Shown piece after piece: positions 15,362-23,174 of a stretch of DNA of 64,000 bases (position 1 is the first letter of the stretch; every line of letters begins with the position of its first letter). The notes beneath the pieces are model-generated. The model had not been told where the DNA came from, made no database searches, and was given only the letters and a program-made list of their open reading frames with translations. The stretch lies in the NCBI GenBank assembly GCA_022508565.1, contig JAFLUY010000004.1, positions 47,454-111,453 of the forward strand, read 5' to 3'. This DNA is from Erysipelotrichales bacterium (GTDB lineage Bacteria; Bacillota_I; Bacilli_A; RF39; UBA660). The translations under genes were made by a program, and so were the position numbers.

Positions 15362-15509
15362 TCATATAAATAGATAGGGTTATGTGGGACCACTTTATTT
15401 ATTAAAATATTAAAATATATTATTTACGAATTAATCTCTTTTAGAGGGCTCTAAAATGCTTAATTTGTGATGATTTCATATATCAAACAGAGTTTGAGAG
15501 TTTAAATCA

Positions 15510-16922
15510 TTAATTAGTAATGATTTCATATGCTACTGCTCCAGCAGCGCCTCCAGTCCAAACATATTCAAAATAAATATATTCAACTCCATTGATTTCT
15601 TCGGTAATCTGAGTTTTTGTGAAATTACTCAATTGAGCAACATCATATTTACTAGATACTTCATTATAAGAGTTAGCTGATTTTAAAGATCTAGGAGTTT
15701 TAATCTTAATTGGAGCAGCTGCAGTAGTACCACTCATTTGAATTCCTGTAAATGTCCATGCTCCCCATGTCTTTAAAGCTTGTTTGACATATCCAGAGCC
15801 GCTATCAATAAATACTGGTAAAGTAACATTTATAGTACATCCATAACTACTTGTTAAAGAACCTGCAGGATGAGGATTGATTACTGAACCGGCGTTAGTA
15901 GTTTTCATCGGATTAGTTGTTGCTCCTTTGGAAGTTTTCATCGTAGGACCAGCGAGATAGTCTATAGATACTCTATATTGATATTGTCCAACTTCATATC
16001 TTGTTACAGCAGTAGGAGCTCCATCTGTTACGGCAGTTGGTTTGTCTCCGGCATTCCAAATTGGAAAATCTGTGGCATTTGTAGCACCTAAAGTATATTT
16101 TACTTGATATGTAGGTGTACCGTCAATACCTCCCACATAATCAATAGAAGCAGTAACTCCATCATCCACTACTACAGTACCTTTATCAAAAGTATAATTA
16201 TATCCAGACCAGATAGTAGTATTAGGTTCTTGGGTAGCTGTAGGACTTCCTGTAATTTTCAAACTAGGATTAGTTACCGTAGGATAAATAGTCTTGAATA
16301 AGATACTATCGAGAATTTCTGAAAGAGGTTTACCATTCAAAGACGCTGAAGTAGTACCTTTTTCTAAATCTCCAACGGCTTCAGGCATAGTTAATGCAAG
16401 AGGACTAAGTGGAGTAAATGTCAATTGGAGATCATCTTCCTCATCCCCATGTCCGAACTTATATAAGTCAGCGGTTTCTGCAGTATAGTTAGAATCTTCT
16501 AAAGTAGCTTGACGTGAAGATTTATAGAATTCTGAGAAATCAATAGCACCGATATTGTCATCAATAGCATCATCGACATAATCGGTAATACCTTTTAAAC
16601 CTTTATTATCAGCGATCTTTACCCAATTAGCTTCTTTTTTCGCCTCAGTAGTCAATACTCCATTTTGTGTAGGAGGAGTTTTAGTAGTATCGATATCGTA
16701 AGGTCCTACATAGATATATACGGCCTTTTCATCTCTAACATATACTTCTAAACCATCATAAATAAATGTATAGTCACCTGTACCTCCAAAAGTATTGAAA
16801 GGATCAGTATAGAGGTCTACTTTCTTATCTAATACAAAACGATTATCTATAGGAGTAGGTCCATTAGCCTGGAATATACCAGGTAAAGTTACTTGTTTTA
16901 CAAACGGTCTTTCATTAGCCAT
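15510..16922 (-). CDS. tail-fibre/receptor-binding paralogue A (470 aa): shared N-adaptor + shared C-terminal domain
   Basis: N-terminus (PIDNRFVLDKKVDLY...FIYDGLEVYVRDEKAVY...EANWVKI) is homologous to the genes at 12512 and 20105. The C-terminal ~320 aa (LQLTFTPLSPLALTMPEAVGDLEKGTTSASLNGKPLSEILDSILFKTIYPT...YFEYVWTGGAAGAVAYEIITN) are homologous to the genes at 16947 and 21921. Confidence 0.8.
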   Translation of the reverse strand: MANERPFVKQVTLPGIFQANGPTPIDNRFVLDKKVDLYTDPFNTFGGTGDYTFIYDGLEVYVRDEKAVYIYVGPYDIDTTKTPPTQNGVLTTEAKKEANWVKIADNKGLKGITDYVDDAIDDNIGAIDFSEFYKSSRQATLEDSNYTAETADLYKFGHGDEEDDLQLTFTPLSPLALTMPEAVGDLEKGTTSASLNGKPLSEILDSILFKTIYPTVTNPSLKITGSPTATQEPNTTIWSGYNYTFDKGTVVVDDGVTASIDYVGGIDGTPTYQVKYTLGATNATDFPIWNAGDKPTAVTDGAPTAVTRYEVGQYQYRVSIDYLAGPTMKTSKGATTNPMKTTNAGSVINPHPAGSLTSSYGCTINVTLPVFIDSGSGYVKQALKTWGAWTFTGIQMSGTTAAAPIKIKTPRSLKSANSYNEVSSKYDVAQLSNFTKTQITEEINGVEYIYFEYVWTGGAAGAVAYEIITN

Positions 16923-16946
16923 ATTTTATAATGTTATGTTTTTATT

Positions 16947-21901: not shown

Positions 21902-21920
21902 GTTTTTATATTCTAATATT

Positions 21921-23174
21921 TTAAGATGTTGTTATTTGATAGTTTACAGCAGCATTTGCTCCTCCTATCCATTTATATTTAAAATAAGTATAGGTTTTTC
22001 CATTGATATTATATTCAACCTTCTCAACATCACTAAACTTAGTAAAATTAGATGATTGATCAACATCATATTTTCCAGATACTTCATTATATGACATTAT
22101 CTTATCTATCTTCCTAGGAGTCAATATTCGACATGGAGTATCTCCAGTAACTGGCTTCATAGGAATTCCTACGAAAGACCAAGAACCCCATGGTTGCAAA
22201 GATTGTTCTACATAATTAGATAGAATATCTTCTTCATTTCCTCCATAATCTACTAATAAAGGTAATGTACAATTTACTTGAAATCCTGGAGCACTATAAA
22301 TAGTAGATCCTGGAGCAGGATTGTCTATTAAACTTCCTGTAGAAGTCTCTATTTTAGGTTTAGGTGTAGCTCCTTTAGAAGTTTTGATAATTGGACCCTC
22401 TCCATAAACTACTTGTACTCGATATGTATATGTTCCTACTTCATATCTAGTTAATTGGTCTAATGTAACATTAGACAATGCCTTTGCTTTATTTTCTCCA
22501 ATAGGATAATTAGTTGCGTCAGATGCACCTACTGAACAAGATACTTGCCATTGATGACTTATTTCATTTCCTCCATAAGTGCCATCAACAGTAGCGTTCG
22601 TAGTTCCTGTATCGGAAATCAATTTAGCTGTACCTTTATTATAAGTATATTTTAATGGAGTATTTTCTACTTTTAATGTCGAACCTGGCTTAACCGTAGT
22701 TGTTGAATTTCCTGATAGAGAAACGCTTGTTGGAGTTATTGTTGGATAAATAGTTTTAAAAAGCATCATATCAAGAATTTCAGATAAAGCTTTACCATTC
22801 AATTCGCTAGATAGAGTACCTGCTTTGATGTCTCCAATTGTTAAAGGGACTCCTAAAGTGCCTGGACTAAGTGGAGTAAATGTTAATTGTAGAAGATCAT
22901 CTTCAGTATTCTTTTCGATTACATAAGTATCCGCCGTTTCAGAATCATACTCTTCTAAAAGGTTTTGTTTAATTCCCTTAAGATCTCCTCCATAATTTTG
23001 CCCATTCAATAATATCTCATAAGTATCAAGACAGAAGAAAATTACGTCTTGATATTTTGGATCATATTTAGGGTCCTGATCTTTTCTATTATCAGGAAAA
23101 TATTTTATCTTATTTCCTCTAGCTTTTATATAGCCTTGGTCTATAAGTAATTGTACTAATTCTTCACTAGCCAT
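21921..23174 (-). CDS. tail-fibre/receptor-binding paralogue C (417 aa) with shared C-terminal domain
   Basis: LLQLTFTPLSPGTLGVPLTIGDIKAGTLSSELNGKALSEILDMMLFKTIYPT ... YFKYKWIGGANAAVNYQITTS. This is a more diverged copy of the C-terminal domain found in the genes at 15510 and 16947. Confidence 0.8.
   Translation of the reverse strand: MASEELVQLLIDQGYIKARGNKIKYFPDNRKDQDPKYDPKYQDVIFFCLDTYEILLNGQNYGGDLKGIKQNLLEEYDSETADTYVIEKNTEDDLLQLTFTPLSPGTLGVPLTIGDIKAGTLSSELNGKALSEILDMMLFKTIYPTITPTSVSLSGNSTTTVKPGSTLKVENTPLKYTYNKGTAKLISDTGTTNATVDGTYGGNEISHQWQVSCSVGASDATNYPIGENKAKALSNVTLDQLTRYEVGTYTYRVQVVYGEGPIIKTSKGATPKPKIETSTGSLIDNPAPGSTIYSAPGFQVNCTLPLLVDYGGNEEDILSNYVEQSLQPWGSWSFVGIPMKPVTGDTPCRILTPRKIDKIMSYNEVSGKYDVDQSSNFTKFSDVEKVEYNINGKTYTYFKYKWIGGANAAVNYQITTS

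Follow-up and report, generated by a model that had tools for sequence, protein, structure and literature searches.

The window analysed here, a 64-kb stretch of contig JAFLUY010000004.1 (positions 47,454 to 111,453), is the tail-fibre region of a phage of ~377 kb and ~29% GC. Within it three genes, g15510, g16947 and g21921, share a C-terminal domain of ~333 amino acids (aa), here called Cdom, and three, g12512, g15510 and g20105, open with an N-terminal domain of ~110 aa, here called Ndom. We find that the three Cdom paralogues are ancient and saturated at silent sites, and that the usual single Cdom/Ndom gene unit has been expanded in this phage to g21921 followed by g20105, and g16947 followed by g15510 and g12512. 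The best joint explanation, to which we give a probability of about 0.6, combines old Cdom paralogues, expanded two-gene units, a Cdom that would act as a docking platform, and an orphan copy of a gene end beyond g15510 that would be the scar of a past exchange. The features concerned are the following (positions in nucleotides, nt, of the window).

21921..23174, minus strand: g21921, 417 aa; a 66-aa N-terminus of the 'MASEELVQLLIDQG' type, then Cdom (aa 66-417, nt 21921-22979)
20105..21901, minus strand: g20105, 598 aa; Ndom (aa 1-113) and a repeat-rich distal part; start 19 nt past the g21921 stop
16947..18899, minus strand: g16947; its own N-terminal part of ~295-320 aa, then Cdom (aa 321-650, nt 16947-17939)
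15510..16922, minus strand: g15510, 470 aa; Ndom (aa 1-122, nt 16557-16922) and Cdom (aa 137-470, nt 15510-16514), here called the 'link' architecture
15460..15482, minus strand: orphan 3' end; YEIITN-stop (21 nt) with 1-2 more bases upstream, not in the frame of g15510 and with no open reading frame (ORF)
15335..15363, minus strand: strong hairpin between the orphan and g12512 that resembles an intrinsic terminator (13-bp stem, then TTTTTT)
12512..15277, minus strand: g12512, 921 aa; Ndom (aa 1-118), a lectin-like domain (aa 167-376) and a long distal part

By BLASTP, g15510 (aa137-470) is 63.9% identical to g16947 (aa321-650) over 335 aa (E 4e-145) and 45.8% identical to g21921 (aa66-417; E 1e-88), and g16947 and g21921 are 44.7% identical. 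The initial annotation, made from the sequence alone, had described three genes sharing a C-terminal domain, and with their ORFs as it gave them and a common ~333 aa at 64/46/45% identity they are true paralogues. It had also called their N-terminal parts unrelated, which holds among the three, but it missed that g12512 and g20105 begin with homologues (36-41%) of the first ~120 aa of g15510. The Cdom copies are intact and under purifying selection, and belong to an uncharacterised family of phage tail proteins.

It had further been proposed that the copies reflect recent tandem duplication or homogenisation by gene conversion, in an active, recombination-prone cassette system. Such an origin would suit the two stretches of ~280 nt at 74-75% DNA identity, namely 15510-15791 with 16947-17228 (74% over 282 nt ungapped, bearing out the ~75% reported for these 3' ends) and 16152-16434 with 17580-17862 (75% over 283 nt), and it would suit the orphan 3' end, which shows that recombination occurred at that spot. 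Against it stands the codon alignment of g15510 and g16947, in which the proportion of synonymous differences (pS) is 0.63, and the synonymous and non-synonymous rates are dS 1.40 and dN 0.27 (dN/dS 0.19). We simulated both genes 2000 times, with the proteins fixed and codons drawn from the usage of 15 minus-strand genes. Observed identity over the whole domain (68.3%) lies near the random-codon expectation of 66.6 ± 1.0% (probability of a simulated value at least as high, 0.05), and that over the last 94 codons (73.7%) near an expectation of 72.9 ± 1.9% (probability 0.37); the same codon is used for 115 of the 207 residues identical in the two proteins, where 108.9 are expected. DNA identity of the Ndom copies, and of g20105 with g2886, is likewise at the random-codon expectation. 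Towards the 3' end synonymous differences seemed to be in excess (pS ~0.98 in 30-codon windows), but not significantly so against the codon-usage simulation.

Thus dS saturation, together with identity at the random-codon level, leaves no sign of recent duplication or conversion, and the copies are neither recent tandem duplicates nor a gene-conversion tract. There is no DNA similarity beyond what protein constraint explains, a result that the initial annotation had itself named as one that should count against its proposal, and no exact repeat long enough for efficient homologous recombination was found among the copies. The simulation serves as a clean control more generally, in that ~75% DNA identity between AT-rich paralogues is fully explicable by protein constraint.

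Relatives in other phages reinforce this. In L024, a 4.5-kb contig of a different sample, a 586-aa orthologue of g16947 (44% along its whole length) is succeeded after 28 nt by a 476-aa orthologue of g15510 (61%, including Ndom), beyond which a 311-nt spacer leads to another Ndom gene. The presence of an orthologous tandem pair in a phage with proteins just 44-61% identical to these shows that the pair is older than a deep divergence. Similarly, in a neighbour-joining tree of Cdom, g15510 is sister to protein P0003 of contig L014 (75%) with g16947 outside (67%), and g21921 groups with P0020, P0006 and P0007 of other contigs, the tree interleaving the window copies with copies from other phages. 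No rearrangement within the population was seen in the two assemblies available, both 100% identical to the window: the ENA contig k141_1147735 (377,382 bp), of which the window matches a part, and, from SRR13619847, a Logan contig of 9 kb. Recent duplication or conversion in an active cassette system is therefore very improbable. It would have been a live example of host-range switching, and the evidence says otherwise.

The family is small and has escaped naming. We detected 102 homologues of Cdom among 5.8 billion proteins, none of them with a Pfam domain or a name beyond 'hypothetical protein', and across them Cdom is joined to at least seven N-terminal types, most members being ~476 aa long with an N-terminal 'LQL(K/R)R...DGE' segment and at least six other types making up the rest. 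The many N-terminal types on Cdom make domain shuffling over evolutionary time real, and to this extent the idea of a recombination-prone cassette survives, as modular shuffling, though not as a recent or active process. Searches of Pfam and PHROGs with all nine proteins of the fibre cluster gave no match for the three paralogues.

An AlphaFold2 model of g15510 shows Cdom as almost all beta-strand and is confident there: the predicted local distance difference test score (pLDDT) is 78-89 for residues 131-170 and, from residue ~170 onwards, exceeds 90 in almost all 10-residue blocks. Its best structural match (Foldseek E 4e-18) is the crAss-like phage cr11_1 'Tail protein' (A0A7M1RZ01, BFVD), with 369 aligned columns at 20% identity and a query-normalised TM-score of 0.47; that structure is itself predicted, and its name is of annotation level. 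No solved-structure fold match for Cdom was found in the PDB at E<0.001, nor any PDB sequence match for Cdom or Ndom, and the kinship seen was to predicted viral structures only, with none to an experimentally characterised fibre or spike. Cdom and Ndom are thus new to the curated libraries, two tail-protein domains with no Pfam, PHROG or PDB relative that are nevertheless widespread in gut and environmental phages. Two candidates for further, distant Cdom copies, in g58995 (tblastn E 0.004; profile comparison probability 0.06%) and g56143, were rejected.

Fibre loci are recombination hotspots in mosaic tail-fibre systems, and genes of this kind, such as the T-even gp37/gp38 locus and those of P2, Mu and P1, are reportedly exchanged by recombination. 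As in those phages, one domain is here joined to unrelated partners, both across and within phages; unlike them, the shared module is the conserved one and not the variable tip, the paralogues are saturated at silent sites, and conserved DNA crossover motifs were not found here. The cluster also resembles the multi-fibre clusters of large phages, among them the vibrio phages with seven fibres, in which the fibre loci are recombination hotspots (PMC12028318). Overall, the locus is a case of ordinary mosaic tail-fibre evolution of a long-known kind.

The window holds three genes with Cdom and three with Ndom, in the order g21921-g20105 and g16947-g15510-g12512, with gaps of 19, 24 and 232 nt, and in all 31 further loci that we fetched (~16 non-redundant lineages), collected through Cdom or through Ndom proteins chosen from an exhaustive hidden Markov model (HMM) search, a Cdom gene is again followed by an Ndom gene on the same strand. 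Where the contig contains both genes complete, the gap in these loci is 5-36 nt; for L023 and L030, tblastn alone revealed the Ndom that comes next. Among the loci is L028, a contig of 64 kb that has a P22-type portal. The two-gene unit, as defined here by a Cdom gene and the Ndom gene after it, is therefore present in the window and in 31 other loci. The link architecture, Ndom and Cdom in one protein, recurs in L024, L025/26 and L029, and wherever the contig continues another Ndom gene comes next.

Ndom itself is carried by 185 clusters at 50% identity in the exhaustive HMM search, and among the 150 of these listed it lies at about residues 1-125 in nearly all, in proteins of 66-2677 aa. The distal parts of these proteins are unrelated and highly variable, one ending in a Peptidase_S74 chaperone domain, which is the classic pattern of a conserved anchor with a variable receptor-binding part. 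The Ndom model is fair (pLDDT 79) and no solved-structure relative of it was found; its putative role is that of an anchor at the start of the protein.

Taken together, gene order and domain conservation lead us to infer that Cdom is probably a docking hub for the Ndom of the next protein and not a receptor-binding tip. The Ndom of the next-encoded protein would attach to the conserved Cdom platform, the order of assembly would be mirrored by the order of the genes, g15510 would add one more link to a fibre that is chained or branched, and the variable distal parts of the Ndom proteins would be the main seat of host specificity. Alternatively, Cdom may be a distal receptor-binding domain, the three Cdom proteins being independent fibres of related specificity and the Ndom genes encoding separate, neighbouring fibres. 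That Cdom is C-terminal, with all-beta, sandwich-like domains, would be in keeping with such a tip, as would its weak best PDB match to a CBM3a carbohydrate-binding module (E 0.04), its variable loops around aa 221-240, 285-310 and 431-440, and the N-terminal 'LQL(K/R)R...DGE' segment of most family members, which we take to be typical of fibre attachment ends. However, conservation of Cdom is fairly even across very different phages, which suits a hub better than a host-specific tip, and the hypervariable regions are the distal parts of the Ndom proteins; moreover the Cdom-Ndom pair travels as a unit, even into the 64-kb phage with the P22-type portal, and proteins with both domains again precede an Ndom gene. 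The conservation of Cdom and the invariant downstream Ndom gene would thus fit docking at least as well as distal receptor binding, and we regard a receptor-binding tip as unlikely, although it is the strongest of the competing readings.

A docking Cdom has parallels in serial and branched fibres, such as gp34-35-36-37 of T4 and the tailspike complexes of CBA120, G7C and PhiK64-1. If Cdom docks its neighbour, then here as there consecutive genes would give consecutive pieces, an N-terminal module would dock on a partner, and several receptor-binding proteins would be carried per virion; in contrast to those systems, docking is here deduced from gene order and domain conservation alone, and there is no sequence or fold relationship to them. 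We suggest, tentatively and at somewhat less than even odds, that Cdom and Ndom form a cognate socket-and-plug pair for chained or branched fibres built from consecutive genes, with the proteins that carry both domains (g15510, P0004 and those of L025 and L029) as extension links, and that this might be a portable and hitherto undescribed interface common to jumbo phages and a phage of P22-portal type. If so, a new receptor-binding protein could be added by inserting a single link gene. The Cdom/Ndom pair and its recurring link proteins suggest how several receptor-binding proteins might be attached in jumbo phages with multiple fibres, a hypothesis that can be tested; docking, if true, would help in host-range prediction and fibre engineering.

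Beyond the g15510 stop lies the orphan 3' end, TTAATTTGTGATGATTTCATAT, at 15460-15481, which matches the true gene end (15510-15531) at 20 of 22 positions. The copy reported by the initial annotation is thus real and far above chance, although it had been put at 15461-15484 and 40 nt beyond the gene end; it is offset by 50 nt from the true end, with a gap of 28 nt to the g15510 stop. It is present in both assemblies, the 377,382-bp ENA contig and the Logan contig of SRR13619847, each 100% identical to the window. On the minus strand it reads TAT GAA ATC ATC ACA AAT TAA, that is YEIITN-stop, the same peptide that ends g15510, and both differences from the true end are silent and at third positions. 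YEIITN-stop also ends P0003 of L014.

It might be supposed that the orphan is a chance match, or a local slippage duplication of the g15510 end, and in either case irrelevant to cassette exchange; it is just 22 nt long, it lies 28 nt from its source, and short tandem duplications are common. Chance is excluded by a 21-mer search of the 64 kb, which at up to three mismatches, a looser threshold, returned just the three expected sites where 0.06 are expected by chance, none of 100 shuffles reaching three. Slippage is opposed by the flanks: the homology covers the last seven codons and 1-2 further bases, its limits falling exactly at the stop codon and at 'ATATGAAATC', and no similarity between the flanks of the orphan and those of the true end was found on either side (local alignment score equal to the shuffle mean), so that tandem duplication of a 50-nt unit is unsupported. 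Both changes are silent, as for an allele diverging while coding; these 21 nt allow 63 single substitutions, of which 12 are silent, so that two of two would be silent with a probability of ~(12/63)^2 = 0.04 under neutral decay, which suggests that the orphan diverged while still coding, in another allele. We consider slippage or chance, taken together, a poor explanation.

The orphan is instead best read as the scar of one illegitimate 3'-end replacement, a single past exchange and no ongoing system, and the description of it as a vestigial extra 3' end is upheld in that it indicates that recombination has occurred at the g15510 end at least once. A diverged but homologous 3' end, with its own stop and 28 nt of foreign trailer, would have been attached by an illegitimate join immediately before the final seven codons of the resident gene, leaving behind the old gene end and its terminator. 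If the orphan was the end of a displaced allele, then YEIITN-stop GCATTTTAGAG would be expected as a real gene end in the pre-event allele. The gap between g15510 and the next Ndom gene is anomalous at 232 nt, as is that after its orthologue in L024 at 311 nt, versus 5-36 nt at every other junction where both genes are whole. The event that formed the orphan is younger than the split of the paralogues and cannot be dated.

Within the 311-nt spacer of L024 (L024:4069-4252) there are about six copies of a 24-25-nt hairpin-forming unit (TAGAGTTTTTAACTCTAAGTWCTA); similar hairpin-repeat motifs are not repeated in the window.

Several observations weigh against the joint explanation. The Ndom of L014 is nearer to that of g15510 (43.6%) than to that of g12512 (36.8%), though the Cdom of L014 is closest to that of g15510, so that a simple mirrored phylogeny of Cdom and Ndom is not apparent; and in L029 the gene before the Ndom+Cdom protein is without a detectable Cdom. 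Adjacency could come from co-transfer or co-regulation of two independent fibres. The 'tail fibre' identity leans on context and on one predicted-structure match, neither domain having solved-structure, Pfam or PHROG kin. As to the scar, it is modelled from 22 nt, and the pre-event allele was not found, either by exact matches to the orphan with its trailer in viral, metagenome and genome collections or by homologue search.

Programmed variation, in which the Cdom genes would be targets of a diversity-generating retroelement (DGR) or parts of an invertible or shufflon-type tail-fibre switch, was also considered, since the related phage of L021 has a true DGR near its Cdom gene. In L021 a lectin-like protein of the same gene neighbourhood is diversified, as are fibre targets of the Bordetella phage BPP-1 Mtd type. 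Unlike that type, the window showed no reverse transcriptase (RVT domain) or recombinase among its scanned ORFs; apart from the 22-nt orphan it has no further copy of the 3' ends, and none that resembles a template repeat. Nor is Cdom the target, the DGR of L021 acting on a different, lectin-like protein. Nor do the copies behave as a switch of the Gin/Cin or Rci kind, for they lie on one strand in direct orientation, there is no recombinase domain in the cluster and no significant flanking inverted repeats, those in the region being short, 70-83% complementary and scattered. We hold programmed variation to be the least probable of the alternatives, by our estimate close to negligible.

The L021 DGR itself (ENA ERZ28614407 scaffold_58) has a 221-nt repeat pair, 14518-14738 and 15558-15778, at 93% identity; of the 15 mismatches, 13 fall on adenines in the copy overlapping the beginning of the RVT_1 gene (15566-16999), and the variable copy lies at the 3' end of the gene for a 261-aa homologue of the g12512 lectin-like domain (aa 166-374).

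Two further features lie between the two Cdom/Ndom units of the cluster.

20050..20075, minus strand: terminator-like hairpin, a 9-bp stem with a T-rich tail, after g20105
19053..19994, minus strand: g19053, 313 aa, with no recognisable domain, between the two Cdom/Ndom units

The architecture of g21921 is found also in P0006 and P0007 (395-397 aa) of other contigs, which share its peculiar 66-aa N-terminus. The distal 475 aa of g20105 are homologous (36%) to aa 1616-2110 of g2886, and the gene holds 27-nt (9-aa) tandem repeats at 20753-20883. The longest ORF of g16947 is probably over-extended: its 586-aa orthologue in L024 aligns from Met27, which would place the true start at the ATG at 18821 (624 aa), and gene callers give it 647 aa in one case and 650 in another. 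The start of g15510 lies 24 nt past the g16947 stop, and that of g12512 lies 232 nt past the g15510 stop.

The lectin-like domain of g12512 is homologous to the C-terminus of g23227. These two domains (aa 167-376 and aa 964-1164) have 84% DNA identity over 171 nt (14605-14775 and 23664-23828) and are the sole paralogous pair in the cluster above the random-codon expectation (65.2% against 61.1 ± 1.2%, z 3.4), the best block of 40 codons having 22 of 27 identical codons. A more recent exchange may account for this. No copy of their 3' ends resembling a template repeat was found in the window.

The assignment to a jumbo-phage tail-fibre region follows from several lines of evidence. The flanking g2886 (2232 aa) matches the tail-fibre PHROGs phrog_3904, 4440 and 15437; an endolysin-type glucosaminidase domain and a Peptidase_G2 domain are present elsewhere in the window; IMG/VR viral contigs of up to 312 kb hold relatives; and there are related contigs of 364-372 kb, one with a DNA polymerase B. 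With the 377-kb contig, these place the Cdom genes within a phage tail/fibre module. All genes between 418 and 36574 are on the minus strand, and no tRNA genes were found in the window. Against GenBank phages the 7.9-kb region has no match at the DNA level, and a protein search with it gave a single 30% match, to an unannotated record. NCBI deposits these proteins under the metagenome-assembled genome 'Erysipelotrichales bacterium' (locus tags J1F35_03515, J1F35_03535); the content is phage-like (~377 kb), so that the bin assignment is probably either wrong or a reflection of the host.

Other genes of the window and of a relative complete the picture. A stand-alone 204-aa ORF (49383-49997) with a Peptidase_G2 autoproteolytic chaperone domain adjoins a GT2 glycosyltransferase, and the window also has a TnsA-like endonuclease ORF (40892-41365). 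Near the fibre cluster of a 364-kb relative there is a TnpB/IS605 OrfB gene (L015:15068-16294). Long arrays of a 14-aa (42-nt) 'SHAEG.NT.A.G' repeat, which matches phrog_25468 (unknown function), are common to four large proteins, encoded at 23227-26721, 26755-29553, 51122-52723 and 2886-9584, that at 51122-52723 being on the opposite strand and ~25 kb distant. Directly downstream of g12512, a 973-aa protein (9577-12498) carries BspA-type leucine-rich repeats (LRR_5, E 3e-11), and its aa 594-953 resemble aa 68-458 of g2886.

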